Positions 1,419 through 50,069 of a DNA stretch of 64,000 nucleotides are shown piece after piece. The notes below the pieces were generated by a model that had not been told where the DNA came from, made no database searches, and was given only the letters and a program-made list of their open reading frames with translations. This DNA comes from Lachnospiraceae bacterium. GTDB lineage: Bacteria > Bacillota > Clostridia > Lachnospirales > Lachnospiraceae. Position numbers and translations under genes: made by a program. Positions within the stretch are counted from its first letter, which is position 1. Every line of letters begins with the position of its first letter. Where the stretch lies: contig JAFZOW010000129.1 of assembly GCA_017552715.1 (NCBI GenBank), positions 14,954 through 78,953 of the forward strand. Direction: 5' to 3'.

Positions 1419-1497
1419 TGCGGCCGGGGGGACTTGAACCCCCACCCTTGCGGACCGGAACCTAAATCCGGCGCGTCTGCCATTCCGCCACGACCGC
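1419..1497 (-). tRNA. tRNA-Leu (anticodon UAG)
   Basis: The reverse complement reads GCGGTCGTGGCGGAATGGCAGACGCGCCGGATTTAGGTTCCGGTCCGCAAGGGTGGGGGTTCAAGTCCCCCCGGCCGCA. It has a 7-bp acceptor stem, a CCGGA/TCCGG anticodon stem with loop TTTAGGT, a long variable arm and a GGTTCAAGTCC T-arm. CCA is not encoded. Confidence 0.9.
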
Positions 1498-1502
1498 TCA
1501 GT

Positions 1503-1526
1503 GACACGGAAAATGCTTTCCGTGTC
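1503..1526 (-). terminator. perfect 10-bp hairpin directly after the GGDEF gene stop (terminator or processing hairpin)
   Basis: GACACGGAAA-atgc-TTTCCGTGTC starts 1 nt after the TAA at 1527-1529. No clear U-tract follows, and the tRNA begins 5 nt later. Confidence 0.45.
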
Positions 1527-2987
1527 TTAATCTTTTCCGCCTTCTCCTCCCAGCTCTTCCACTGCCAGGTCCGACATGAGCTGCATCAGGTTTTCGGAAT
1601 CCAGGATCTCTTCCGAGAAAGTGATCACCGTGGAGTTGTTCTCTTCCTCCTCTTCTTCGGCCAAAAGCTCACGATAGGAAGGCTGCTCTTCCCCGGGAGT
1701 GACCACCAGCTGGTTGCGGCCGTGTTCTTTTCCGAAGTAGAGCTTTCCGTCCGCCTCTTTGGTCATATCCTCGGCGCTGCGGGAAGGATCTCCTTCCACA
1801 AGTCCGATGGTCATGGTGATCTTTATGGTCTGCCCGCCGTGTACCACCTTGGAGGCACGGATACGGTCCAGGAAATCCTCCAGTATGGCTCCTGCCGTTA
1901 TCAGATCCGTATCTTCAAAGATCAGCAGGAATTCCTCACCGCCCCAGCGTACCGCAAAGCCCCGGCCGTTCATGGTTTCCTTCAGTTCCTTGGAAACATG
2001 CTTCAATACCGCGTCACCGGCATCGTGACCGTAGGTATCGTTCACCTTCTTGAAAAAGTCGATATCGCCTATGCACAGGCAGAAGGGTTCTCCCGTTTCT
2101 CTGGCGCTTCGCATGATCTTCTTGAGCCTTGCATCACCGGAACGCCGGTTATAGAGCGTAGTCAGGGGATCACATTCCACCAGGACCCGCACCGCATTCT
2201 GCATGCGCACGATATCCCCTCCGATCTCACCGATCTCGTCTCCCCGCTTTGTCACTTCATCGGGAAGCTCGTTGCTCAGCTTTCCCGCCACCATACGGGA
2301 CAGAAAAGCATGAATGGAATCCACTGCCGTAACAATGGAACGGGTATAGCGTATGCTGATGAAGCTGGCGATGAGCAAACCCAGGATCGTGATGATGCAG
2401 ATGGGCCGGAAGGCCACGGTGGTCTCCCTCTGCACTTCCTCCGCCGTGATGGCGGTACCCACCATACCGATGAGGCTGCCGTCGGAATTCAGGAGCGGCA
2501 CATAGCATACGTAATAGCTGTGCCCCTCCCCGATCTGCGTTCTGTATGTCAGAACGTTCATCTTGTTCTCCATATCCCGCATGATGGCGGGATGTACCCC
2601 GCTGCCCACATAACGGTTCCCGTTCTCATCCTTCAGGGTGGTAAGGATACGGGCATCCTTGTAAAACAGCGTGATATCCATGCCGCTGCTCTGCGAAATG
2701 GCATCGATATAGGTAAAGTCCCCCGTCAGTTCCTGCTCCCCTTTGTACAGGGAAGCCAGACTGCCCGCGGTGACCAGCTCGTAGTCCCCGGGGTACATGA
2801 GCTCATAGGCTTCGGCCACGGAACTGGCCACAGCCTCCAGGGAACGGTAACTCTCTTCCTCCAGAGAGGAGCGGGAAAAGATCATCGATACCACGATGAT
2901 CAGCGCACCCATGACCAGCATGGGGAGTATGGTACGCACAAGCACCGCCAGCTGCAGTTTTCCCATCTTCTCTTTTTCTACCTTCAT
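1527..2987 (-). CDS. diguanylate cyclase with N-terminal TM, extracellular Cache-like domain, second TM, HAMP-like linker and GGDEF domain
   Basis: 486-aa ORF. The C-terminal region reads DPLTTLYNRR...CIGDIDFFKKVNDTYGHDAGD...RWGGEEFLLIF, which carries the GGEEF active-site motif. Two hydrophobic segments flank a ~170-aa periplasmic region. RBS is AGGAGAAGG. Confidence 0.9.
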   Translation of the reverse strand: MKVEKEKMGKLQLAVLVRTILPMLVMGALIIVVSMIFSRSSLEEESYRSLEAVASSVAEAYELMYPGDYELVTAGSLASLYKGEQELTGDFTYIDAISQSSGMDITLFYKDARILTTLKDENGNRYVGSGVHPAIMRDMENKMNVLTYRTQIGEGHSYYVCYVPLLNSDGSLIGMVGTAITAEEVQRETTVAFRPICIITILGLLIASFISIRYTRSIVTAVDSIHAFLSRMVAGKLSNELPDEVTKRGDEIGEIGGDIVRMQNAVRVLVECDPLTTLYNRRSGDARLKKIMRSARETGEPFCLCIGDIDFFKKVNDTYGHDAGDAVLKHVSKELKETMNGRGFAVRWGGEEFLLIFEDTDLITAGAILEDFLDRIRASKVVHGGQTIKITMTIGLVEGDPSRSAEDMTKEADGKLYFGKEHGRNQLVVTPGEEQPSYRELLAEEEEEENNSTVITFSEEILDSENLMQLMSDLAVEELGGEGGKD

Positions 2988-3002: not shown

Positions 3003-4568
3003 TCAGATGTAGACTGCCTTTTCTTCCCGGCGTGCAGCGGCTTCGGTGATCATCACCTCGCGCAGCTGCGGCATGGAAGGTACCTCATAGAGTACGTCGG
3101 CCAGAATATCCCGCACCACGGCATTCAAGCCTCTGGCGCCTATGCTCATCTCCATCACCCGGTCGATGATCACATCCAGGGCGGCATCCGTAACATTCAG
3201 GCGCACCCCGTCCTCCAGCTTCAGCTCCGTTTCGTAACGGGAAAGTATGGAATCCTCCGGCTCCGTAAGCACTCTCTTGAGCATTTCCCGGTCCAGGGCC
3301 TTCAGCACAGTCACGGCGGAAAGCCGTCCCGCCAGCTCCGGCTTCATGCCGTATTCGATCAGATGCTCCGTCTTTAAATGTACGCCGGTCATCTCAAAGT
3401 TCTCATCCGCTCCCACATCGCTGCCAAAGCCGATGCCGCTCTTGAGATAATCCTTCTTTACGATCTTATCCAGGCCCTCAAAGGCGCCGGCACATACGAA
3501 AAGTATGTTATCCGTATTCAGCAGGATGCACTCCTGCCCGCCGGATTTATCTCCCAGGGGCACATCCATATCCGTGCCCTCAAACATGCCCAGCAGCTGC
3601 CCCTGCAGTTCCTGGTTGATATCCCCTCCTTTGGAATAGAGCTTGGAGGGTATGATCTTGTCGAACTCATCACAGAAGACTATGCCGCATTCCGTGAGTT
3701 CCTGATCCTTCCCGGCTTTCAGATAGAGGTTTAAAAGCGCCTCCTCCTTGTTCCTTCCTTTCCAGGGCGTGGCCACCACACCCGAAAAATCCGTGATCAC
3801 CACAGGCACAGGCACCAGCTCCGAGATGCGCCGGATCAGCTCCGTCTTGCCGCAGCCGGAAGGTCCGATCATCAGCACATTGGTCTTCAGCAGATGCTCC
3901 TCCGGATGCAGTATACGCAGGAAATGGTTATATACCGCCGTGGAAAGCAGGACCTTGCTCTCTTCCTGCCCCAGCACAAAACGGTCAAGATACTCCTTTA
4001 TACGCCGGGGTGTATACTCCCGTACAAAACGTTCGCAGGCCGTATGGAAGGCCGAAGACGTATTCCGGTTCTTTTCCTTTTTCCTTTCGGGCATACGGAT
4101 GTTCCGCGCCCGGTTCTGCTGATAGCGTACCCGGCAGACCGCCAGCAGTCCCAGTTCCGAAAGAGCCTCTTCCCCGTCACCGTCCTTGTGCAGCTCATAT
4201 TCCATGAAATCGAAGAGTTCGTCGATATCCTCGTTGGCCAGCTCCTGCTCCAGACGGCGTGCGTTATAGAAGATCTCGTCCTCCGGCGCTTTGATGGCCG
4301 CTTCCCGTATGATGGCCCAGAAAGGAGTCCGGTAGCCTTTCTCCTTATAACTGGCCCCCATGAGCTTCAGCACGCTCTCGATATTGTGTTCCGCTGCGGG
4401 ACGCATGCGGAAAAGATAATGCATGAGTACACGCAGATAAGCCGCATCCGTATCCGGTGCGGACAGCTCTCCCCCCTCCCTGCGATAGGCCTCCAGATGG
4501 TCTTCCAGGAAGATGGCATATTCTGCGTCGTTTTTACAGCGAAATATCTCCTTTATGCTGCTCTGCAT
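3003..4568 (-). CDS. ClpX-family AAA+ ATPase paralogue A, with no zinc-binding domain and a novel ~200-aa N-terminal region
   Basis: Motifs present: Walker A MIGPSGCGKT, Walker B IVFCDEFDK, IGF loop KSGIGFGS, sensor-2 IGARGL, and the ClpX-like C-terminal block ELAGRL...LTEPEDS. Pore-1 GYVG is replaced by TPWKGR. The ORF track starts at 4574 (MKMQ...). The ATG at 4568 has better GGAG spacing (7 nt). Confidence 0.85.
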   Translation of the reverse strand: MQSSIKEIFRCKNDAEYAIFLEDHLEAYRREGGELSAPDTDAAYLRVLMHYLFRMRPAAEHNIESVLKLMGASYKEKGYRTPFWAIIREAAIKAPEDEIFYNARRLEQELANEDIDELFDFMEYELHKDGDGEEALSELGLLAVCRVRYQQNRARNIRMPERKKEKNRNTSSAFHTACERFVREYTPRRIKEYLDRFVLGQEESKVLLSTAVYNHFLRILHPEEHLLKTNVLMIGPSGCGKTELIRRISELVPVPVVITDFSGVVATPWKGRNKEEALLNLYLKAGKDQELTECGIVFCDEFDKIIPSKLYSKGGDINQELQGQLLGMFEGTDMDVPLGDKSGGQECILLNTDNILFVCAGAFEGLDKIVKKDYLKSGIGFGSDVGADENFEMTGVHLKTEHLIEYGMKPELAGRLSAVTVLKALDREMLKRVLTEPEDSILSRYETELKLEDGVRLNVTDAALDVIIDRVMEMSIGARGLNAVVRDILADVLYEVPSMPQLREVMITEAAARREEKAVYI

Positions 4569-6021
4569 CTTCATTCTCCGTGATATACCGGGGTTCCGCC
4601 CCCTCCGTGATCACATCCGTATCGATCACGATGCGCCGAAGATCTGCCATATCCGGCGCACGGTACAGTACTTCCTTCATACAGCGCCCCAGGATGGCCT
4701 GAAGCGAACGGGCCCCCGAGGGGCTCTTCAGCGCTTCGGCCGCAACGGCCCGCAGCGCATCCTCCGTAAACACAAGCTCCGCGTCGCAGGAGAGTCGGAG
4801 CTCCCGCTCGTAACGGCGCAGCAGGCTGTCCTTGGGTTCCGTGAGTATACGGAGCATATCCTTCTCCGTAAGGGCTTCCAGCACGGAAATGCTGCTGATT
4901 CGGCCTGCCAGCTCCCGCTTCATGCCGTATTTCATCAGCACCTCATGATTGATATTGCGTCGGACGAACTCCACGTCCATATCCTTCACCAGAGGCGAGG
5001 TAAAGCCGATATGCCCGGAGATCTTGCTCTTCTCCCTTTTATCGGCCCGTATGAACTCATCAATGCCCTGAAAGGCTCCGGCCAGGACAAAAAGTATATG
5101 GGAGGTATCCAGAAGCAGGCTGTGGCCGTCGCACTTAAGCTCCACTTCACTGCCCTCCAGCATGGTCAGAAGCTGGGCCTGCACATCGTCATGGATGTTC
5201 ACTCCCCTCTCCGATATGGCAGGCAGGAGCAGTTTATCGAATTCGTCCATAAAGACGATGCCGTTTTCCGCCAGGCTCTTCTTCCGCCCCGCTTCCTCGT
5301 ATAGCTCCAGGAGTATATCCTCCTTATGCCGGCCCCTGTACTGACTGGCTCCCAGAGAGGACACATCCGTAAATACCATGGGATGATCCGTGATCTCCCT
5401 TATCCTTCGCATGATCTCGGTCTTGCCGCAGCCGGAGGGCCCTATGAGGAGCACCACATCCGGTGCAAAACGCACGGAAGGATGGCGCACCCGTTTCCCG
5501 TGGCCGTATACCGCGGTACTCACGGCACGCTTTGCATCCTCCTGGCCGATGACATAATCGTCCAGATAGGCCTTTATCTCTACGGGAGTCTTTCGTTCCT
5601 TCTTCTCTTCGGTACTGCTTTCGGAAAAGTATTTCCGCTTAAGGCAGAGGATACGGCCCAGGATCAGCTTTTCCCGCTCGTTGGAACTTTTGTCCGTGGC
5701 ATGACGCAGGGTGTCCGCCTCAAGGAATTCCAGGATATAGGCGGCCCGCTCCCCGAAGATCTCCCGGCTGTAGGCCAGATCCTCCTCCAGTTTATCAAGG
5801 ATACGGGGAAGGGAACGCAGCTCCGGAAGGATACGTTTATCATCCTTCACTCGGAAATAGAGCATCTCCAGATAGCCCAGAGCATCCACATCCGCCTCTT
5901 CCGGATCGCACACCAAAACAAAGCGCTCCAGAATGTAGCGGCTCACTTCCTCCGATTCGTCAGCATGGGTCTGCCCCGGTTCGGCCATTATCCTTTCCAT
6001 TACACGGTATATATTGATCAT
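4534..6021 (-). CDS. ClpX-family AAA+ ATPase paralogue B, with no zinc-binding domain and a distinct ~165-aa N-terminal region
   Basis: Motifs present: Walker A LIGPSGCGKT, Walker B IVFMDEFDK, IGF loop SGHIGFTS, sensor-2 SGARSL, and ELAGRI...LTEPKDS. The pore-1 position reads SQYRGR. Its 3' end overlaps the start of paralogue A by 35-41 nt. Confidence 0.85.
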   Translation of the reverse strand: MINIYRVMERIMAEPGQTHADESEEVSRYILERFVLVCDPEEADVDALGYLEMLYFRVKDDKRILPELRSLPRILDKLEEDLAYSREIFGERAAYILEFLEADTLRHATDKSSNEREKLILGRILCLKRKYFSESSTEEKKERKTPVEIKAYLDDYVIGQEDAKRAVSTAVYGHGKRVRHPSVRFAPDVVLLIGPSGCGKTEIMRRIREITDHPMVFTDVSSLGASQYRGRHKEDILLELYEEAGRKKSLAENGIVFMDEFDKLLLPAISERGVNIHDDVQAQLLTMLEGSEVELKCDGHSLLLDTSHILFVLAGAFQGIDEFIRADKREKSKISGHIGFTSPLVKDMDVEFVRRNINHEVLMKYGMKRELAGRISSISVLEALTEKDMLRILTEPKDSLLRRYERELRLSCDAELVFTEDALRAVAAEALKSPSGARSLQAILGRCMKEVLYRAPDMADLRRIVIDTDVITEGAEPRYITENEDAEQHKGDISL

Positions 6022-18739: not shown

Positions 18740-21619
18740 TCAGATCTTTATGCTTATCTCACGGCTGATCTTTTTCTCCTGTTTCTTTCCGCGGCTCTGC
18801 ACCACGATGGTACGGTCGTGATAACGGAGCACAAAAAGTGCCGGGATACGCAGGCAAAGTGTGTCTGTTTCGCACTGTTCCAGCAGCTCCCTGGAGATAC
18901 GTACCAGGAATGCCTTTCCCTTTTCGGAACGTATGCTCAGGCGTCCCAGGCGCTTCTTCCTGCCGTCGGGGCAGACCGTATCCACCTCCGCCATGGCAAA
19001 AAGGTAGACCAGTCCGGCATAGGCACCGACGATGCCGCCCAGGCCTCCCACGGTCACCGCGCCCACCGTGGCAACCCTGCGGATGACCGGCATATTCCCG
19101 CTCTCCTCCCTGCTTTTTTTACCCCCTTCTCCGGGGCTTTCTTCCTTCACCGGAGCAGTCCCGCTTTCCTCCTGCGGGCCTTCGGCCACCGTGATGACCG
19201 GCTCCGCTTCTTCCGGCCCGCTCTCCTCATCCTCGTCTTCCTCGCTGTCGGGGATCACGGTCCTTTGCTGCGGCAGGAGCTCCTCATCCTCCTCTTCACG
19301 TTCGGTCCCGGCAGCAGCTGTGTTGCCTGTATTTCCCGCCCGCAGCGTTCCGGCACTTCCCGCAAGAGGCCTTTTTTCTCTTATGACGATCCCGTTACCG
19401 CTGACGCTGTTGTCACTGACAGTATTATCACTGACGGAATCATCGTTTTTTCCCTCCTCTTCGGGGGGCGTCGTTACCTTATCCCCGTCCTCATCATCGG
19501 CGCCGGGGGTCCTTCCCTGCTCTCCGGGTGCGGGATCGCCGCTCTCTCCATTACCGCCGTTTTCTTTTTTCTCCCGTTCCTTTCTTTTTCTCTCCCGTTC
19601 TTCCCTTTCCTTCTTTTCCTTTTCCTTACGTTCCTTTTCTTCCTGCTCCTGACGCTCTTTTTCTTCCTGTTCCTGACGTTCCTTCTCTTCCTGTTCTTTA
19701 CGTTCTTTCTCTTCCTGTTCTTTACGTTCTTTCTCTTCCTGCTCCTGACGTTCCTTCTCTTCCTGTTCTTTACGTTCTTTCTCTTCCTGTTCCTGTCGTT
19801 CTTTCTCTTCCTGTTCCCGGCGTTCCTTTTCTCTTCTTTCCTTCTCCTTATCCTCATCCTCACGGTTTTTCAGCTCATGGCTGCGAAGAGTGAGCATGGG
19901 CCGCTCCGTATCCCAGCGCCAGAGCCCCGTGGGCCTGCCGTATGCGTCAAACACGCATTCATCCTCCAGGTAATAGCCGTCAAATGCCGTATTTTTACCC
20001 AGTTCGGGAACGCTTACCGCGGGATAGCTCTCTCCGTAGACTACCGTAAGCTGCTCATCCGGGACACCGTCTCCGTCCCCGTCGGGTCCGTAATACACGG
20101 TATAGCTCCGGGCCGCCCATTTCGGCTCCAGTGTGTAATCCCCTTCCTCCAGGGAAGGCTTCCACTTTCCGGCAGGCTTTCCGTCCCTGTCATAGGCATC
20201 CACGCCGTCCACCTCATAGCCGTCAAATTCATAGCCCTTTCTGCCTTCAGGCTCTCCCGGCCGGATATCCGGGATCTCATCACCGTAACGCAGCTCCATC
20301 ACTTCGTCGGGCAGCCCGTCCCCGTCGGCATCCTCGCCGTAACGGATCTTCCAGATCTTGTCATGCCAGCGTCCGTCAAGCTCCACTTCACCCAGCTCGA
20401 AAAGCTCGGGCAGCTCTCCCCGGGGCTGTCCCTCACTGTCATAGATCAGGCGCTCCCCGTAAAAATAGCCGTCAAAGGCCTTTCCTTCCCGTTCCGCGGG
20501 CGGGCTGAGGGGCGGAAGCTCATCTCCGTATTCGATCTCGATCACGTTCCCGGCTCCGGCAGTGATACGGTATTTTCTGACAGACCATTTCTCCCGGAGT
20601 ATCAGGGTCTCCCCCTCCGGCAGCTCCGTCCATATCCCCACAGCCGCCGCATTCTCGTCATACAGCTTCTTATCTCCGATATAATAACCCTCAAAGAGGA
20701 AGCCCGGCCGCTCCCCGGGAACCGTCAGCCCCAGCGCCGGCGGTGCCTCGTTATAGACCAGCTCGCTCACCGAATCCGGGAGCCCGTCTCCGTCCCCGTC
20801 GCTGCCATAATAGAAGGAGAAACGCAGCGCTTCCCAGGAGGCCTGCAGATCCAGTACGGCCCGGCTCAGGGGCCTTGTCCCTTTTCCCACAGGCCGGCCC
20901 TCCTCATCATGGTACTGTTCTTCTCCCGCATAATACCCTTTGAACACGTAACCGCGTCTTTGGGGGACCTCCACCGCACTCAGGCTTTCACCCGCTTCCA
21001 GCTCCGAGCTCTTTAAAAGCGCTCCCTCGCTGTAATACCTTACGGTAGCAGGCAGGGACAGCTCGGTGTAGGAAAGGGATTCCTCCTTCCAGCTTTTCAG
21101 CTTTGAATCGTAGTAGCGGAGCGTAGCATGAAAGGTTCCTCTTTCCCGGACCGGAAGTACGCTCTTTCCATCGCTTTCATAGGCTCCCTCCGCGTCCCAG
21201 CTTATCTCGTACTCTGTGATCGCCTCCGACTTTGACGAGATCCCGGCGATCAGATCCACCTCTCTGCCGTAGAGTGCCCTTTCGATATAAAAACTTCCAA
21301 GATAATGCTCCGTACAGGTCAGCTGATCCACATAATCGCCGTCATGAACGGGTCCCACGGTTCCCAGTATACGTTTTCCGCAACGGTTGCAGACCCATAC
21401 ATCCGTACTGGGAGATGTAAAAGATCCTCCGCATTTTTTGTATACGGGAGAGTAACATCCCGTATACCGGTCTCCGTGGACATGATAAAGAGGGGCAGAT
21501 ACCGTGCCCAAAGTCTGCACCGGGTCATCTTCGGCCCTGGCGCACATGGGCGGGTGCATCCCGAAAAGGATGCTCATACAGATCAGACAACATAAGATTC
21601 TTTTTTTTACCATTCTCAC
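18740..21619 (-). CDS. large cell-surface protein: signal peptide, Cys-rich module, 5-6 Listeria-Bacteroides (InlB B-type) repeats with DGDGxPD motifs, E/K/R-rich helical stalk, acidic disordered region, TM anchor and short cytoplasmic tail
   Basis: 959 aa. The signal peptide is MRMVKKRILCCLICMSILFG.... There are recurrent G(Y/F)xFxGYY...YDxxGxP units, each following YGxDxDGDG(L/V)PD. The EEKER(Q/K)EQ unit occurs about 9 times. The TM segment is VATVGAVTVGGLGGIVGAYAGLVYLFA. GTG start with AGGAGG 8 nt upstream. Confidence 0.8.
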   Translation of the reverse strand: MRMVKKRILCCLICMSILFGMHPPMCARAEDDPVQTLGTVSAPLYHVHGDRYTGCYSPVYKKCGGSFTSPSTDVWVCNRCGKRILGTVGPVHDGDYVDQLTCTEHYLGSFYIERALYGREVDLIAGISSKSEAITEYEISWDAEGAYESDGKSVLPVRERGTFHATLRYYDSKLKSWKEESLSYTELSLPATVRYYSEGALLKSSELEAGESLSAVEVPQRRGYVFKGYYAGEEQYHDEEGRPVGKGTRPLSRAVLDLQASWEALRFSFYYGSDGDGDGLPDSVSELVYNEAPPALGLTVPGERPGFLFEGYYIGDKKLYDENAAAVGIWTELPEGETLILREKWSVRKYRITAGAGNVIEIEYGDELPPLSPPAEREGKAFDGYFYGERLIYDSEGQPRGELPELFELGEVELDGRWHDKIWKIRYGEDADGDGLPDEVMELRYGDEIPDIRPGEPEGRKGYEFDGYEVDGVDAYDRDGKPAGKWKPSLEEGDYTLEPKWAARSYTVYYGPDGDGDGVPDEQLTVVYGESYPAVSVPELGKNTAFDGYYLEDECVFDAYGRPTGLWRWDTERPMLTLRSHELKNREDEDKEKERREKERREQEEKERQEQEEKERKEQEEKERQEQEEKERKEQEEKERKEQEEKERQEQEEKERQEQEEKERKEKEKKEREERERKRKEREKKENGGNGESGDPAPGEQGRTPGADDEDGDKVTTPPEEEGKNDDSVSDNTVSDNSVSGNGIVIREKRPLAGSAGTLRAGNTGNTAAAGTEREEEDEELLPQQRTVIPDSEEDEDEESGPEEAEPVITVAEGPQEESGTAPVKEESPGEGGKKSREESGNMPVIRRVATVGAVTVGGLGGIVGAYAGLVYLFAMAEVDTVCPDGRKKRLGRLSIRSEKGKAFLVRISRELLEQCETDTLCLRIPALFVLRYHDRTIVVQSRGKKQEKKISREISIKI
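19625..19835. repeat. in-frame 24-bp tandem repeat (~9 units) encoding EEKER(Q/K)EQ inside the surface-protein gene
   Basis: On the + strand the units ttccttctcttcctgttctttacg / ttctttctcttcctgctcctgacg alternate, giving a 48-bp higher-order period. Confidence 0.85.
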
Positions 21620-22968: not shown

Positions 22969-24435
22969 TCAGCCCCTGAGTTCGATCAGGGGCGCCCCTT
23001 TTCCTTCCAGATAGTCCCGGGTAATGGTCACGGTACCGATGTTATGGTCCTTGGGAACCTCGTACATGATGTCGATCATATGCTCATCCAGTATGGAGCG
23101 CAGGGCACGGGCGCCGGTCTCCTTCTTCAGGGCTTTTTCGGCGATGTATTCCAGCGCATCGTCGGTGAAGACCAGCTTCACTTCGTCCAGCTCCAGAAGC
23201 TTCTGATACTGCTTCAGTATGGCATTTTTCGGCTCTTTCAGGATACGGATCATCATATCCCTGTCCAGCCCCTCCAGAGCGAAGACCATGGGCAGACGTC
23301 CCACAAATTCCGGGATCATCCCGAACTTCCTTATATCCTCGGTCTCCACCTCTTTCAGTATGGTCAGATCCTTCTCATCCGGATTCTTCACCTCTGCATG
23401 GAAACCTATGCCGGAAGTCTTGTTAAGTCGTCTTTTGATGATCTCTTCTATCCCCGGGAAAGCTCCTCCGCAGATAAAGAGTATATTCCGGGTGTTCATG
23501 CTGGTGGTAGGTACCATGGCATTCTTTGAGGAAGCCCCCACAGGCACCTCTATATCCGCCCCCTCCAGCAGCTTCAGCAGCCCCTGCTGCACCGATTCCC
23601 CGCTCACATCCCGGGAATTGGTATTCTGCTTCTTGGCGATCTTATCGATCTCGTCGATATACACGATCCCCTGCTCCGCCCGGTCCAGATCATTATCCGC
23701 CGCTGCCAGCAGCTTGCTGAGCACGCTTTCGATATCATCACCGATATAACCGGCTTCCGTCAGGGTGGTAGCATCCGTCACCGCCAGGGGCACGTCCAGT
23801 ATACGGGCCAGCGTACGTACCAGATAAGTCTTTCCGCAGCCGGTAGGCCCCAGCATCAGCATATTGGATTTTTCTATCTCTATCTCATCCATGGTGTGGG
23901 TGGCCACACGTTTATAATGGTTATAAACAGCCACGCTCATAACCCGTTTGGCCTGCTCCTGACCCACCACATATTCGTCTAATTTAGATTTGATAACATG
24001 AGGTGCCGGTATATCCTTAAGCTCGATCAGAGGCTTATACTCCGACTTGTCCCTCTTCTTTACCTTCTGTCTGTTCCCGAAGCCGAAATCAAACGGGAAG
24101 TCCGTAAGCTTGATAAAATTGACCTTTGGGCCATTTTTTAAATCTTGATTATCCTTCTTTTCTTCTTTTGTTGAATCTTCTTTTAACTCTTTACTCTCTT
24201 TGTCTTCCTCTTTTTTCTCCGTTGTATTACCGGAGTTAGGACCGTACATCCCCATCACCTTTCCCCAGTCGATGGCACCGGCCCCGTTCATATTCCCCAT
24301 CTGGGACTCAACCATGTCTGCGGTCTTGTCCATACAATCCTGACAGAGATAAACGTTCATAGGCAGCCGGATGAGTTTCCCGGCTGCCTCTTCAGTTCTG
24401 CCACACATTCCACAAATCTTGATCTGATCGTCCAT
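22969..24435 (-). CDS. clpX: ATP-dependent Clp protease ATP-binding subunit ClpX (canonical, with an N-terminal zinc finger and a long linker insertion)
   Basis: Zinc-binding domain CGMCGR...LCQDCMDK, Walker A LGPTGCGKT, pore-1 AGYIGDD, Walker B IVYIDEIDKI, IGF loop TSGIGFHA, sensor-2 TGARALR. About 85 extra residues, partly K/E-rich, lie between the zinc-binding domain and the AAA+ module. Confidence 0.95.
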   Translation of the reverse strand: MDDQIKICGMCGRTEEAAGKLIRLPMNVYLCQDCMDKTADMVESQMGNMNGAGAIDWGKVMGMYGPNSGNTTEKKEEDKESKELKEDSTKEEKKDNQDLKNGPKVNFIKLTDFPFDFGFGNRQKVKKRDKSEYKPLIELKDIPAPHVIKSKLDEYVVGQEQAKRVMSVAVYNHYKRVATHTMDEIEIEKSNMLMLGPTGCGKTYLVRTLARILDVPLAVTDATTLTEAGYIGDDIESVLSKLLAAADNDLDRAEQGIVYIDEIDKIAKKQNTNSRDVSGESVQQGLLKLLEGADIEVPVGASSKNAMVPTTSMNTRNILFICGGAFPGIEEIIKRRLNKTSGIGFHAEVKNPDEKDLTILKEVETEDIRKFGMIPEFVGRLPMVFALEGLDRDMMIRILKEPKNAILKQYQKLLELDEVKLVFTDDALEYIAEKALKKETGARALRSILDEHMIDIMYEVPKDHNIGTVTITRDYLEGKGAPLIELRG

Positions 24436-25809
24436 TCAATTCGTCCTTCCTAATGAACTCCGGTCTCCCAGAGTAAGCTCCAGGGTCATATCTTTATATC
24501 GGTTTCCGTCGGGACGCTTGATCTCCACTTCCACCGTATCGCCCACGCGATAGTACATCAGCAGTCTCTGCAATCCTTCCATGGAGGTAACGGTCTCACC
24601 GTCCAGAGCCGTGATGTAATCACCGCGCTGCATGCCTGCCAGATCCGCCGGCGAACCATCGTTCACATTTGCCACATACACCCCTTCCGGATATCCGTAG
24701 AGCATGATCTCCTGCTGGGTCACGGTAGCACCGGTGATACCAAGATAACCTCTCTCATCTTCCGATACCAGAGTACGGGTGGTCTTCTGCATCAGCTCTT
24801 CGATGATGGGTTTTGCGGCGGAGATGGGGATCGCATAGCCCATACCCTCTACAGTGGATCCGCCGATCTTACTGGAATTGATCCCGATCACTTCACCGTT
24901 GATATTTAAGAGTGCACCGCCGGAATTTCCGGGGTTGATGGCTGCATCTGTCTGGATAAAGGTACCCGTGATATTTTCCACGGTCATCTCGCGGTTGAGG
25001 GCGCTGATGACACCTGTGGTCACCGACTGGCCATAACCCAGGGCATTACCGATGGCAATGGCGGGTTCTCCAACCTTAAGGGCATCGGAATCACCCATAC
25101 GGGCAACTTTGATGGAATTCAGGGTGGAATCCGAGATATCATCCATAGCTACGGCGATCACAGCCAGATCCCTCTGGGAATCCGTCCCCTTAACCAGGGC
25201 AGTCGCTTCGGAACCGTCCGTAAAGCATACTTTCAGGCTTTCATTATCAGCCACCACATGATAATTGGTCACCAGCAACAGTTCCTCGGAATTGGAACCG
25301 ATGATTATACCGGAACCGCTGGACTCACTGGGCATGGTATAGTAAAAGTAATTGACCGTGCTCTCATTGGTGATGGATACGATAGCGGGCATCACCTGCT
25401 CTACCACATTGGTAACATCTGTAACGACCGTGGTAGCGGAAGTACTGGCTGCGGGCATGGCAACCGCTTCCGAGATCACTTCTGCCCTTTCGGCTTTTTC
25501 CTTATCCGTATACTCCGTATATGCTCCGCGCTCGCCTCCGTTCCCGATGCCCATATCCAGCCCCAGCAGACTGCCGGCCTGCTGTACCAGATAGAGCCCG
25601 GCTCCCGCAAACAGTCCGAAGAAGAGACCAACGGCCGCTGCCAGACAGATCTTGGAGAATACTCCTGATTTTTTCTTTTTCGGCGCAGCCTGTACCGGAG
25701 CCTGCGCAGGATTTACCGCAGTATACTGCCCATATCCGTTCCCGCCCGTGCGGTCACCGTACATGCCATTGTTACTGCCATATTCGTTGTTCCCATTCTC
25801 TCCATACAT
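24436..25809 (-). CDS. htrA: HtrA/DegP-family serine protease (S1C) with an N-terminal G/N/Y-rich cytoplasmic tail, TM anchor and C-terminal PDZ domain
   Basis: Active-site region TDAAINPGNSGGALLN, His region TNYHVV, and PDZ region GYLGI...GSPADLAGMQRGDYI. Its stop TGA is immediately followed by the ATG of clpX. Confidence 0.9.
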   Translation of the reverse strand: MYGENGNNEYGSNNGMYGDRTGGNGYGQYTAVNPAQAPVQAAPKKKKSGVFSKICLAAAVGLFFGLFAGAGLYLVQQAGSLLGLDMGIGNGGERGAYTEYTDKEKAERAEVISEAVAMPAASTSATTVVTDVTNVVEQVMPAIVSITNESTVNYFYYTMPSESSGSGIIIGSNSEELLLVTNYHVVADNESLKVCFTDGSEATALVKGTDSQRDLAVIAVAMDDISDSTLNSIKVARMGDSDALKVGEPAIAIGNALGYGQSVTTGVISALNREMTVENITGTFIQTDAAINPGNSGGALLNINGEVIGINSSKIGGSTVEGMGYAIPISAAKPIIEELMQKTTRTLVSEDERGYLGITGATVTQQEIMLYGYPEGVYVANVNDGSPADLAGMQRGDYITALDGETVTSMEGLQRLLMYYRVGDTVEVEIKRPDGNRYKDMTLELTLGDRSSLGRTN

Positions 25810-25824
25810 GCTGATACACTTCCT

Positions 25825-25898
25825 TTCACATTATCTTCCGGGGCTTTTCCCCTTTCTATGAAGCTCATTCTAGCCCCGTTTTGTGAAGATAATGTGAA
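25825..25898 (-). promoter_or_regulatory. nested inverted repeat in the htrA upstream/leader region, containing TGTGAA-N5-TGTGAA
   Basis: The 14-bp perfect arms ttcacattatcttc (25825-25838) and gaagataatgtgaa (25885-25898) enclose a 7-bp GC pair, cggggct (25839-45) and agccccg (25872-78). The distal arm extends to TGTGAAgataaTGTGAA. The RBS (GAAAGGAAG) abuts the proximal arm. Confidence 0.5.
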
Positions 25899-26025
25899 GT
25901 AAAAATGCTGATTTTGTGTAATTACTGTTATTCATGATGCCCTCGGATCGCTCCGCAGCTTCAATGCTCCCGCAATCCCGCGAACATTCGCAATCCGCTG
26001 AAATGCTTGCTGCACAAGCATTTCG

Positions 26026-27852
26026 CTACTCAACTGTGACCGACTTTGCCAGATTCCTGGGATGGTCCACATCATAACCCTTGCCCACGGATACATAATA
26101 GGCAAAGAGCTGCAGCGGGATGATGGCCAGGGAGTTGGCAAAGAAGGGATCGGTAAAGGGAATATACAGCACATAGTCGGCTTCCTTTTCGATCTCTTTC
26201 CTGCCCCGCTCGGCGATAGCCATCACAAAGGCCCCTCTCGACTTGACTTCTTTTATATTGCTGACGGTCTTGGCAAAGAGCTCCGGCTGCGTGGCTACCG
26301 CCACCACCAGCGTCCCCGGCTCTATGAGTGAGATGGTACCGTGCTTCAGTTCCCCGGCGGCATATGCCTCGGAATGGATATAGGAGATCTCTTTCAGCTT
26401 CAGGGATCCCTCCAGACCAATGGCATAATCGATCCCGCGTCCGATAAAGAAGACACTTCTCGCAGCCACATAACGATTGGCAAAATGCTGGATCTTTTCC
26501 TTCTGTCCCAGCATCAGTTCGATCTGATCGGGTAAGGCCTGCAGATCCTCCAGCAGCTTGGCGAAGCGCCTGTCATCGATGACACCGCGTACACGCCCCA
26601 GCTTCATGGTCAGCAGATAAAATGCTACCAGCTGGGCACTGTAAGCCTTGGTGGTCGCTACCGAGATCTCCGGGCCGGCCCAGGTATAAAATACCGAATC
26701 CGCCTCTCTGGCGATGGAGCTGCCCACCACGTTTACGATGGCCAGGACCTTGATCCCTCTGGCCTTGGACTCGCGTACGGCTTCCAGTGTATCCGCCGTC
26801 TCTCCGGACTGACTCACCACGATCACCAGATCTTCGGGGGACAGTATGGGATCCCTGTAGCGGAACTCACTGGCCAGATCCACCTCTACGGGTATACGCA
26901 GCATTCCTTCGATGACATATTTTGCAGTCACTCCCACATGATAGGCCGACCCGCAGGCCACGATATGGATACGGTTAATGGCCTTAAGCTCCTCATCCGT
27001 AAGTCCCAGCTCCTCGATCACAATCTCTCCGTTCCTTATACGGGGCGAGATCGTATCCGTCACGGTCTTCGGCTCCTCATAGATCTCCTTGAGCATAAAA
27101 AACTCATAACCGGCTTTTTCCGCCGCATTGGCATCCCAGTCCACGGTCACGAGCTGCTTCTCGATCTCTTCCTCATCCACGGTATAGAACTTCACATCAT
27201 CGGCGGTCAGTCTGGCGATCTCCTGATTGTCAAGATAATAGACATTTCTCGTATACTTCAGGATCGCCGGCACATCGGATGCGATAAAGCAGCCGTCCTC
27301 GCTGCAGCCCACGATCAGGGGGCTGTTCTTTCTTGCCGCATACAGTTCATCCGGATGATCGGCAAAAAGGATCCCCAGAGCATAAGAACCTTCCACACGA
27401 TGCAGCACCTTGGTAATGGTCTGAAGAGGATTCCCGTCGTAATAGTAATCCAGCAGATGAGCCAGCACTTCCGTATCGGTCTCGGAGCTGAACTCATAGC
27501 CCTTCTTCACCAGCTTATTCTTCAACGCCATATAATTTTCAATGATGCCGTTGTGCACCACCACAATGGTACCTGCACCATTGCTGTGGGGATGGGCATT
27601 CAGGTCGCTGGGAGCACCATGGGTAGCCCATCTTGTATGGCCGATCCCGGAAAAACCGGGCATATTCTCCCCGTTATGGGTCAGATTCTCCAGAACGGCC
27701 AGCCGACCGGCCGCCTTCTTTGTCACGATCTCTTTTCCGTCAAAGACCGCGATCCCGGCCGAATCATAGCCTCTGTATTCCAGTTTGGACAGACCGTCCA
27801 GCACTATGGGAGCGGCCTGTTTTTTCCCTATATATCCTACGATACCGCACAT
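26026..27852 (-). CDS. glmS: glutamine--fructose-6-phosphate aminotransferase (isomerising)
   Basis: 608 aa. It starts with MCGIVGYIG (N-terminal nucleophile Cys), has two SIS domains, and ends ...DHPRNLAKSVTVE. Confidence 0.97.
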   Translation of the reverse strand: MCGIVGYIGKKQAAPIVLDGLSKLEYRGYDSAGIAVFDGKEIVTKKAAGRLAVLENLTHNGENMPGFSGIGHTRWATHGAPSDLNAHPHSNGAGTIVVVHNGIIENYMALKNKLVKKGYEFSSETDTEVLAHLLDYYYDGNPLQTITKVLHRVEGSYALGILFADHPDELYAARKNSPLIVGCSEDGCFIASDVPAILKYTRNVYYLDNQEIARLTADDVKFYTVDEEEIEKQLVTVDWDANAAEKAGYEFFMLKEIYEEPKTVTDTISPRIRNGEIVIEELGLTDEELKAINRIHIVACGSAYHVGVTAKYVIEGMLRIPVEVDLASEFRYRDPILSPEDLVIVVSQSGETADTLEAVRESKARGIKVLAIVNVVGSSIAREADSVFYTWAGPEISVATTKAYSAQLVAFYLLTMKLGRVRGVIDDRRFAKLLEDLQALPDQIELMLGQKEKIQHFANRYVAARSVFFIGRGIDYAIGLEGSLKLKEISYIHSEAYAAGELKHGTISLIEPGTLVVAVATQPELFAKTVSNIKEVKSRGAFVMAIAERGRKEIEKEADYVLYIPFTDPFFANSLAIIPLQLFAYYVSVGKGYDVDHPRNLAKSVTVE

Positions 27853-48846: not shown

Positions 48847-48989
48847 AAAGCGTGACCTTTCCGTCTTATGTTCCACTGACCGGACAAAAAAATTGTAAAG
48901 GAGACTGGGAAAACTGTCAATCATCTGGGGAGCAGTCCGGCCCGATTTTTCTCTTGAAAGTATCGGGCGGCTGTTTTACAATATACTTT

Positions 48990-50069
48990 ATGATAAAGAG
49001 ATTTGCTCAACTGCTCAGGCAGGGGTCTAAGGAAGGTGCGTTTGACAACCTTCTCCTGCTGCTTCGTTTTGTACTGCTGTGCATGATCCCCTACATGATC
49101 ACCATGGGCGTGATCCTTATGATCCGCGGGGTAGTGAGCTATGCACTGCTGTCCTTTCTGTTTGCACTTTCCTTTTTATCCTGCATGATCCTTAGCTACA
49201 AAGTGGGTGTGCGGGGCCTTACCCTTACGGCAGCGATCCTGATCGATATCTATTCCGTGATCTGTGCCGTATGCTTCGGAGCGGCCGCCAGTTTTCAGCA
49301 GCTGCTGCTCTTAAGCCTTTTCATCTTCTGGTACGATATCACCCGCAGCACTCCGCGAAAGATCTTCTTAAGCCTTTTAAGCCTGGCTGCACTGTGTTAT
49401 ATACGAGCCGCCGAGCTGTCGGAGAATCCCGTGCTGGATCCCGGCACTCTGGGCTATACCATCATCACCTATACCAATAATGTTTTCTGTATACTCCTGC
49501 TCTCGGTCATAGCCTGGTTCTTCTGCACACAGTTTGCCGAAGCCGAACGCAAGCTCTTCCTCTCCAACCGGGAACTGCGGAAGATCTCCCATACCGATCC
49601 TCTGACCCATCTCATGAACCGCCGCTTTGCGGAGGAGGAATTCGAAGTACTGGAAAAGAACTACGGCAGGAAGGGAGAATTCATCAGCGTTGCCATCGGG
49701 GATATCGACTTTTTCAAGCGCGTGAACGATACCTACGGCCACGATGCGGGGGACTATGTACTGGAGGCCCTTGCCGCGGTCTTTGAAAATTTCATGAAAG
49801 ACAAAGGTTTTGTGGTACGCTGGGGCGGCGAGGAATTCCTCTTCGTCTTCGAGCATTCCAACGGAGATGACGCCTATTCCGCTCTGGAGGCACTGCGTAA
49901 ACGCATCGAACGTGCCCAGCTGCGTTATAAGGAACGCCCCATCTCCGTGACCATGACCTTCGGTGTGGAAGAATACGGCTACTCAAACGGCATGACCGCT
50001 GCCATCGAAGCCGCCGACAAAAAACTCTACAAGGGAAAAGAAGACGGCCGGAACCGCGTAGTTTACTGA
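48990..50069 (+). CDS. membrane-anchored diguanylate cyclase (multi-TM N-terminus + GGDEF)
   Basis: DPLTHLMNRRFAEEEF...AIGDIDFFKRVNDTYGHDAGD...RWGGEEFLFVF. The start is uncertain: ATG at 48990 versus GTG at 48852. The GTG would lie only 5 nt from the divergent gene start. Confidence 0.8.
   Translation: MIKRFAQLLRQGSKEGAFDNLLLLLRFVLLCMIPYMITMGVILMIRGVVSYALLSFLFALSFLSCMILSYKVGVRGLTLTAAILIDIYSVICAVCFGAAASFQQLLLLSLFIFWYDITRSTPRKIFLSLLSLAALCYIRAAELSENPVLDPGTLGYTIITYTNNVFCILLLSVIAWFFCTQFAEAERKLFLSNRELRKISHTDPLTHLMNRRFAEEEFEVLEKNYGRKGEFISVAIGDIDFFKRVNDTYGHDAGDYVLEALAAVFENFMKDKGFVVRWGGEEFLFVFEHSNGDDAYSALEALRKRIERAQLRYKERPISVTMTFGVEEYGYSNGMTAAIEAADKKLYKGKEDGRNRVVY

Follow-up and report, generated by a model that had tools for sequence, protein, structure and literature searches.

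In a 64,000-nt stretch of a Lachnospiraceae genome (assembly GCA_017552715.1, contig JAFZOW010000129.1, positions 14,954 to 78,953; hereafter the window, whose own numbering is used throughout), two neighboring genes, here called A and B, encode AAA+ ATPases and are followed by the gene of a membrane diguanylate cyclase. Motifs and phylogeny mark A and B as anciently diverged, catalytically intact descendants of the unfoldase ClpX and, by gene order in related genomes, A–B–cyclase is a strictly conserved predicted three-gene operon, specific to Lachnospiraceae and found in rumen and gut. ClpX, among the best-understood AAA+ unfoldases, is generally regarded as a homo-hexamer whose GYVG pore is hydrophobic and whose zinc finger serves as adaptor platform. 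Going by the alignments, the elements with which ClpX selects its substrates (the N-domain, the RKH loop, and the chemistry of the first pore loop, pore-1) have all been swapped in A and B. The reading that we favor, to which we would give about an even chance, is that A and B cooperate as one, probably mixed, ring that docks on ClpP and grips an acidic polypeptide, its client in the core clade being most plausibly the cyclase of the same operon, held by its tail.

The six-frame list of open reading frames (ORFs) of the window gives A, B, and a cyclase of 486 aa as three consecutive minus-strand ORFs. These genes, the likely end of the operon and the ClpX used for comparison are the following:

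4534..6021, minus strand: gene A, an A-type ClpX-like AAA+ ATPase of 495 aa (ORF; helical N-domain plus ClpX-type AAA+ module)
3003..4568, minus strand: gene B, a B-type ClpX-like AAA+ ATPase of 521 aa (ORF plus ribosome-binding site)
1527..2987, minus strand: membrane sensor diguanylate cyclase, third gene of the operon, beginning 15 nt past B (Pfam matches)
1503..1526, no strand assigned: perfect 10-bp hairpin directly 3' of the cyclase stop codon, the likely operon end
22969..24435, minus strand: bona fide zinc-finger ClpX, the comparator (PF06689 match, 545 bits on NF003745)

An earlier note on this DNA had described two overlapping minus-strand ORFs, with gaps of 15 nt from B to the cyclase and of 39 nt from the SBP gene to A, all of which we find in the ORF list. 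The longest ORF for B is 3003..4574 on the minus strand (523 aa). However, a GGAG is located 7 nt upstream of the ATG at 4568 and none stands at a usable distance from the ATG at 4574; since it serves the former start alone, the product of B is likely that of 3003..4568 (521 aa), a gene that shares 35 nt with A. The start of A agrees with the MINIF... N-terminus of its orthologues. Immediately 3' of the cyclase we also noticed a gene for tRNA-Leu (anticodon TAG, 1419..1497, minus strand), with the 10-bp hairpin, which has no T-tract, in between.

Both proteins have a single AAA+ module with the same architecture as that of ClpX (AAA_2 and the ClpB_D2-small lid), and the only Pfam domains found in them were AAA_2, AAA, and ClpB_D2-small. 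ClpX was the top NCBIfam model for A and for B, although both stayed under the two curated cut-offs: NF003745 (cut-off 359) gave 253.2 bits for A and 279.0 for B, against 545.4 for the real ClpX of the window, while TIGR00382 (cut-off 370.75) gave 228.5 and 248.9 bits, respectively. The top PDB matches were ClpX for both (E ~1e-58 for A, ~1e-61 for B). HslU is told by a score above the cut-off of its model, by an I-domain insertion and by the lack of an IGF loop; with this model (TIGR00390, cut-off 362) A reached 138 bits and B 119, split over three fragments, and both carry the IGF tripeptide. The motifs quoted in the earlier note were all there, i.e., Walker A (GPSGCGKT in A and in B), Walker B (IVFMDEFDK in A, IVFCDEFDK in B), sensor-2 (GARSL in A, GARGL in B), ELAGR, and IGF. 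Across the families (see below) the Walker B DEFD, the GR of the arginine finger and the GAR of sensor-2 are kept in 60–61 of the 61 A-type and in all 60 B-type sequences, their ClpX equivalents being conserved in form as DExD, GR, and GAR. The same note was right in that the zinc-binding domain is missing from both paralogues: the Pfam scan found the ClpX zinc finger PF06689 in the real ClpX of the window and not in A or B, and no CxxC...CxxC was found in either N-domain. In short, A and B resemble ClpX in architecture, in Walker A and B, arginine finger, sensor-2, and the IGF tripeptide, yet on curated score, zinc finger, GYVG pore, RKH loop, and clade placement they would fall outside the ClpX family proper. 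Databases name these proteins only "AAA family ATPase," with one called ClpX.

Searching with A retrieved about 60 full-length clusters (61 in the A clade) with identities of 47–74%, past which the score dropped sharply to true ClpX, which aligned in the AAA+ module alone, with 39% identity; those A-type clusters that bear a source name are "AAA family ATPase" of Lachnospiraceae. The search with B retrieved a separate set of about 60 clusters, 44–73% identical over the full length, and there the A-type proteins matched at ~40–44% over the AAA+ module only. A neighbor-joining tree of the AAA+ module was built from 303 columns and 116 sequences with 100 bootstraps, including 20 ClpX sequences (eight from Lachnospiraceae and 12 from the top matches, several of them named Selenomonas). 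It separates all the paralogues from ClpX with a bootstrap of 100 and, as the earlier note had envisaged, each paralogue makes a clade of its own, with values of 81 for A and 90 for B (96 for A plus the A-like outliers, 26 for B plus the B-like outliers). Mean identities in the AAA+ module are 41.6% between A and B, 35.8% between A and ClpX, and 38.1% between B and ClpX, which argues for an old duplication and not for a split gene.

An overlap of 35–41 nt between two such genes looks unusual, and PADLOC gave weak matches to the DolB and IetA ATPase models, so that A and B could be taken for a frameshift-split duplicate, for pseudogenized clpX copies or for a mobile anti-phage ATPase cassette. 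We give this next to no credence. The assembly frameshift, contemplated in the earlier note, was checked and dismissed given that A and B are only ~42% identical and that their junction varies among genomes; furthermore, full-length copies of both occur in more than 20 genomes, their catalytic motifs are invariant, they stand in a conserved chromosomal synteny, and the G+C content of the A–B–cyclase locus is host-like. As for defense, the DolB match (E 9e-12 over ~130 aa) and the IetA matches (E no better than 8.6e-6, the best over ~150 aa) cover a generic P-loop only, the partner genes are absent, and the neighbors are housekeeping and signaling genes in conserved synteny. The artifact, pseudogene, and defense-system readings are therefore refuted by conservation and context.

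The neighborhood was compared in 36 loci, gathered from contig look-ups and from a metagenome scan with the pore-loop peptide of B, which reduce to 22 non-redundant lineages (B clustered at ≥95% identity). Another scan, of genome contigs with the full B alignment, used over-general patterns (GP[ST]G[CS]GKTE and F[IV]CAGAFE), and family members were only three (L007–L009) among the 80 loci listed. The gene directly upstream of B is A in 20 of the 20 lineages that could be evaluated for it, mostly with junctions of -4 or -17 nt, and an orthologous Cache-GGDEF cyclase follows B in 20/20 evaluable ones, usually no more than 70 nt away. At least 29 pairs of A and B clusters share their longest contig. 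Among the carriers there is a cultured rumen isolate, Lachnospiraceae bacterium AB2028 (GCA_000621425.1), together with metagenome-assembled genomes from goat and sheep rumen and at least one genome labeled "Firmicutes bacterium ADurb.Bin354." The gene upstream of A varies (SBP, ion-channel, peptidase C11, or divergent amino-acid kinase gene) and, because it differs among genomes, the conserved unit is A–B–cyclase, without the SBP gene. In 11 loci htrA and the zinc-finger clpX are found 3–5 kb upstream of A, and glmS is downstream in several; the window has its counterparts of these htrA–clpX/glmS neighbors at 22969..27852. This synteny, htrA–clpX ... A–B–cyclase–glmS, indicates that the locus is chromosomal, and the paralogues probably arose beside clpX, which would be the likely ancestor locus. 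Conservation of the pair and its cyclase, which the earlier note had proposed to check, is complete in the evaluable lineages of the core clade, whereas the cyclase is gone from more divergent pairs. Three of these (L114, L115, and L116) have A and B in the same apparent order and no cyclase, and a fourth locus (L118) has two adjacent ClpX-like genes, also without cyclase, of which the A-type one comes second, so that the two may stand in the reverse order, with the first left unclassified. One more locus (L117) has a solitary B-type gene.

Several other features of these neighborhoods were noticed. The htrA-type PDZ serine protease gene of the window abuts clpX (22969..25809, minus strand, the htrA ORF ending at 24436 and the clpX ATG being at 24435), an adjacency conserved in relatives (L007, L009, L088, L090, and L111). 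Between clpX and A–B–cyclase there are peptidase genes in some loci, a Peptidase_S8 after clpX (L004, 3425..5143) and a Peptidase_C11 before A (L087, 3954..6326), both of secreted type. The locus L114 opens with an EAL-domain gene near its divergent A/B pair. Finally, a 418-aa protein (P0033) on a 2,059-bp ENA metagenome contig joins the C4 zinc finger of ClpX (CSFCG...CEDC) to an A-type AAA+ module that has the pore SQFRGRHKE and is 71% identical to A of the window; it is either a natural recombinant of clpX and A (genes located 3–5 kb apart) or a chimeric assembly.

Such an obligate gene pair sets A and B apart from ClpX. Heteromeric rings made of paralogous AAA+ subunits are well known, namely m-AAA Yta10/Yta12, Pex1/Pex6, and, in cyanobacteria and chloroplasts, type A/type B FtsH. 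A and B are like them in being two paralogous subunits that always co-occur, with genes that abut or overlap, and are candidates for such a ring. We know of no ClpX-family hetero-hexamer that has been described, nor did we find one in the literature. It could be argued that A and B are merely co-expressed and make two independent homo-hexamers with separate substrates, each having the full set of ATPase motifs and its own distinct N-domain, and a solitary B-type relative being found in L117. We consider this very unlikely given the strict co-occurrence and translational coupling in 20/20 lineages and the pairs seen also in divergent clades. Besides, the asymmetric retention of the IGF tripeptide (see below) fits a division of labor inside one ring.

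In place of the zinc-binding domain, A and B have N-domains that were modeled with AlphaFold2 run on the family alignments (pLDDT, predicted local distance difference test; pTM, predicted template modeling score):

5590..6021, minus strand: N-domain of A, aa 1–144, six-helix (AlphaFold2 pLDDT 91.4, pTM 0.85)
4014..4568, minus strand: N-domain of B, aa 1–185, eight-helix plus disordered linker (AlphaFold2 pLDDT 85.7, pTM 0.76)

Both are confidently predicted all-helical domains, each restricted to its own lineage. Foldseek comparisons of the two models with PDB, and of the B model with the viral BFVD, gave nothing below E ~0.7 and no TM-score >0.4, and neither profile searches of PDB sequences nor a permissive Pfam scan gave a credible match. 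A match to topoisomerase III (E 0.045) and another to DUF4240 (E 0.011) were dismissed as noise. The view of the earlier note that these regions belong to no recognized family holds, therefore, across Pfam, PDB sequences, and PDB and viral folds, in spite of the confident models. Its description of them as unrelated regions of about 200 and 165 aa fared less well, the actual sizes being ~144 (A) and ~185 aa (B). A profile of the B domain retrieved 16 matches in total from 1.84 billion cluster representatives, and those examined or classified so far are B-type, the short ones looking like N-terminal fragments. The hidden Markov model (HMM) of the A domain found A-type proteins only, except for a weak match (E 6e-4) to one B-outlier over the last ~45 residues of the domain; direct alignment of the two domains with hhalign was marginal (E 0.012, probability 3.5%). 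These last ~45 residues are weakly similar in A and B, and the cross-match suggests a common two-helix element ahead of the AAA+ module.

Some of the divergent relatives are longer, both of B-type (P0086, P0183–P0185, and P0188, with 680–703 aa) and of A-type (P0078, P0082–P0084, with 650–700 aa), due to extra residues at the N-terminus, and these additional 150–250 residues had no Pfam match. In P0086, residues 1–62 give a second match to the B-domain profile, pointing to an N-domain that was duplicated in part and in tandem. The long relatives might have been fusions of the A and B N-domains, a Rosetta-stone argument for co-assembly, but HMM searches gave this no support; the additional length is either unassigned or a partly duplicated B domain.

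The loops of the AAA+ module that bear on substrate handling and on docking are located as follows:

5326..5343, minus strand: pore-1 loop of A, QYRGRH, aa 227–232, aligning to GYVG
3750..3767, minus strand: pore-1 loop of B, PWKGRN, aa 268–273, aligning to GYVG
4999..5013, minus strand: IGF tripeptide of A, HIGFT, aa 337–341 ([ILMV]G[FYW] pattern)
3423..3437, minus strand: IGF tripeptide of B, GIGFG, aa 378–382 ([ILMV]G[FYW] pattern)

When aligned with HMMER to solved ClpX structures, Tyr228 in the QYRG of A and Trp269 in the PWKG of B fall onto the Tyr of GYVG. The pore-1 aromatic and Gly are retained, the hydrophobic residue in the middle has given way to a basic one (R in A, K in B), and the flanks are basic where those of ClpX are acidic. 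The earlier note had considered GYVG replaced and the pore rewired; the charge is indeed reversed, but with the aromatic-x-Gly still in place in the alignment, "rewired" overstates the change. It is a very consistent one across the families. In the A clade (n = 61) we found YRGRH 38 times, FRGRH 17, and TKGRH 4, so that (Y/F)RGRH accounts for 55/61, and in the B clade W(K/R)GRN is present in 60/60 (57 WKGRN and three WRGRN), embedded in a near-invariant block of 22 residues, DFSG(I/V)VATPW(K/R)GRNKEE. The form in ClpX is (Y/F)(V/I)G followed by A/D/E and then D. Over the pore-1 11-mer the net charge is +2.0 in A and +2.0 in B, versus -3.4 in ClpX. The RKH loop is deleted in the A clade, where the alignment has a gap of nine columns, and in the B clade it is shorter and lacks RKH.

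A pore-1 loop of the aromatic-basic-Gly type (Y-R-G in A, W-K-G in B) is what katanin, spastin and the meiotic-clade AAA proteins have, and in katanin the X-R-G motif of the pore loops makes a positively charged entrance for the acidic tails of tubulin (PMC8369831). The resemblance is convergent and confined to pore-loop chemistry, A and B having no homology to those enzymes past the generic AAA fold. Another difference is that katanin and spastin have neither an IGF loop nor a peptidase partner.

The IGF-type tripeptide was scored as [ILMV]G[FYW] where the alignment has its ClpX equivalent; 60/61 A-type sequences, 17/18 A-outliers, and 49/60 B-type sequences keep it, falling to 7/28 in the B-outliers (ClpX, 47/47). 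Together with the ATPase motifs, this shows a motor and a ClpP-docking element that are under constraint, which is the stronger in A.

The third gene of the operon encodes a protein with a transmembrane (TM) segment, an sCache_3_3 domain, a second TM segment, a linker, and a GGDEF domain with the motif GGEEF. The Cache-HAMP-GGDEF architecture given in the earlier note stands for sCache_3_3 and GGDEF, which were matched, and not for HAMP, which Pfam did not find at E < 0.01. At the end of the protein we located two features by means of the tail alignment:

1530..1703, minus strand: acidic tail of the cyclase, aa 429–486, with 18 D/E versus 2 K/R
1551..1595, minus strand: semi-conserved amphipathic segment of the tail, ENLMQLMSDLAVEEL

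GGEEF is present, and an RxxD I-site absent, in each of the 18 operon-linked cyclases examined, and every one carries a strongly acidic C-terminal extension reaching ~54–177 aa past GGDEF. These tails align on a single amphipathic segment (e.g., ENLMQLMSDLAVEEL, EDMIRKMAENAIREV, and ESIMASFSAQVVKNA), the remainder being acidic and variable. In a wider set of 117 scorable homologues, tails of 35 aa or longer occur in 89 (median 85 aa, ~30% D/E, mean net charge -16.7). It is evident how the tail goes with the pair: all 22 homologues that share their longest contig with an A or B cluster are tailed, while none of the 28 tail-less paralogues (most of them 421–458 aa long and ~41–43% identical) is linked to such a cluster. 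A second GGDEF protein encoded in the window (48852..50069, plus strand) has a multi-TM N-terminus and GGEEF and stops directly past the domain, with no tail.

The strict linkage to a GGEEF cyclase with intact active site and without I-site could also be understood in the opposite direction, the cyclase being the input and its product, cyclic di-GMP (c-di-GMP), binding to A/B, either at the N-domains or at the AAA+ module, and switching on the degradation or remodeling of other, probably acidic, clients. Control of proteolysis by c-di-GMP has a precedent in PopA, which works with ClpXP in Caulobacter, and the pair occurs without cyclase in divergent lineages, where other clients are needed. 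Nevertheless, we regard this as unlikely, since neither A nor B showed any of the known domains or motifs that bind c-di-GMP, their N-domains having no Pfam match, and since it leaves unexplained why the acidic tail is restricted to the cyclases linked to the pair.

Returning to the mixed ring acting on the cyclase, its mechanism might be as follows. A and B would work jointly, and their strict pairing, their translational coupling, and the unequal retention of IGF between them suggest that they probably do so in one mixed hexamer. The electropositive pore would grip an acidic, disordered polypeptide in the fashion of the katanin X-R-G motif on tubulin tails, while the helical N-domains could provide recognition of the substrate or of a partner peptide. 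Docking on ClpP would fall to the IGF loops, at least to the A-type ones. The tail of the cyclase, with its amphipathic segment, may in the core clade serve as tether and initiation site, and by removing or remodeling this sensor cyclase the module would set the c-di-GMP output. Proteolytic turnover of a membrane cyclase, like its control by a dedicated NTPase system, has a precedent in DgcE (see below).

Several observations weigh against this scheme. The divergent pairs devoid of cyclase (L114, L115, L116, and L118) and the solitary B of L117 imply that the cyclase is not the only client of the family. A strict regular expression for the tail segment matches only 43 of the 89 tails, and acidic low-complexity tails can also arise without function. 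The IGF tripeptide is mostly gone in the B-outliers, and a ring with just three docking loops might bind ClpP poorly. Lastly, with a Bacillus subtilis ClpP as query, clpP was found neither in the 64 kb of the window nor in any of the loci retrieved.

These last points (no clpP nearby, decay of IGF in the B-outliers) are also what would be expected of a ClpP-independent chaperone or disassembly machine, comparable to ClpX acting on its own, which would activate or inactivate complexes such as the cyclase dimer with no proteolysis involved. We find this distinctly unlikely, as the IGF in 60/61 A-type proteins and in 17/18 A-outliers is hard to explain without docking on ClpP, and in Firmicutes clpX often does not neighbor clpP. 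Still, there is a precedent for an NTPase partner system that governs a cyclase, the membrane diguanylate cyclase DgcE of Escherichia coli, which is activated by the RdcA/RdcB system and subject to continuous proteolytic turnover (PMC6510439). It is similar to the role proposed here for A/B in that a membrane cyclase has a dedicated NTPase partner, although there is no sequence relationship to A/B; RdcA is a dynamin-like GTPase and not an AAA+ protein, and the unknown proteases that degrade DgcE do so from the MASE1 domain at its N-terminus (PMC6510439).

The most specific version of the mixed-ring reading would make A/B the first ClpX-family hetero-hexamer, docked on ClpP, with a katanin-like pore for poly-acidic tails, acting as an operon-encoded proteolytic off-switch of the cyclase, whose tail and segment would be read by two N-domains of new fold. 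Taken with all these parts together it is rather doubtful. Our literature searches found no account of a paired ClpX-type system or of these N-domains, nor of a charge-reversed ClpX pore or a cyclase-linked ClpX-like protein. The closest case is ClpX3 of Myxococcus xanthus, an extra, non-essential ClpX paralogue lacking the N-terminal domain (PMC11423568). It is, like A and B, a paralogue without zinc domain found beside a canonical ClpX, but a lone gene that merely lacks the N-domain, whereas A and B are a co-evolving pair with new N-domains, basic pores, and a linked cyclase.

A conserved pair of ClpX descent in which three selectors have been swapped, the motor and the docking element being kept, would show how a general unfoldase can be re-specialized, and A/B could be the first hetero-hexamer of ClpX type. 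The linkage to a tailed cyclase suggests, moreover, a direct route from regulated unfolding or proteolysis to c-di-GMP output in the abundant Lachnospiraceae of rumen and gut, where, to our knowledge, c-di-GMP signaling has been little studied.

Two further observations concern other genes of the window. The zinc-finger ClpX has an insertion of ~90 aa, rich in K and E, past the finger and ahead of the AAA+ module. At 18740..21619, on the minus strand, there is an ORF of 959 aa whose N-terminus resembles a signal or TM segment and which contains a long series of EKER(K/Q)EQEE repeats; a spurious ORF of 772 aa is located on the other strand.

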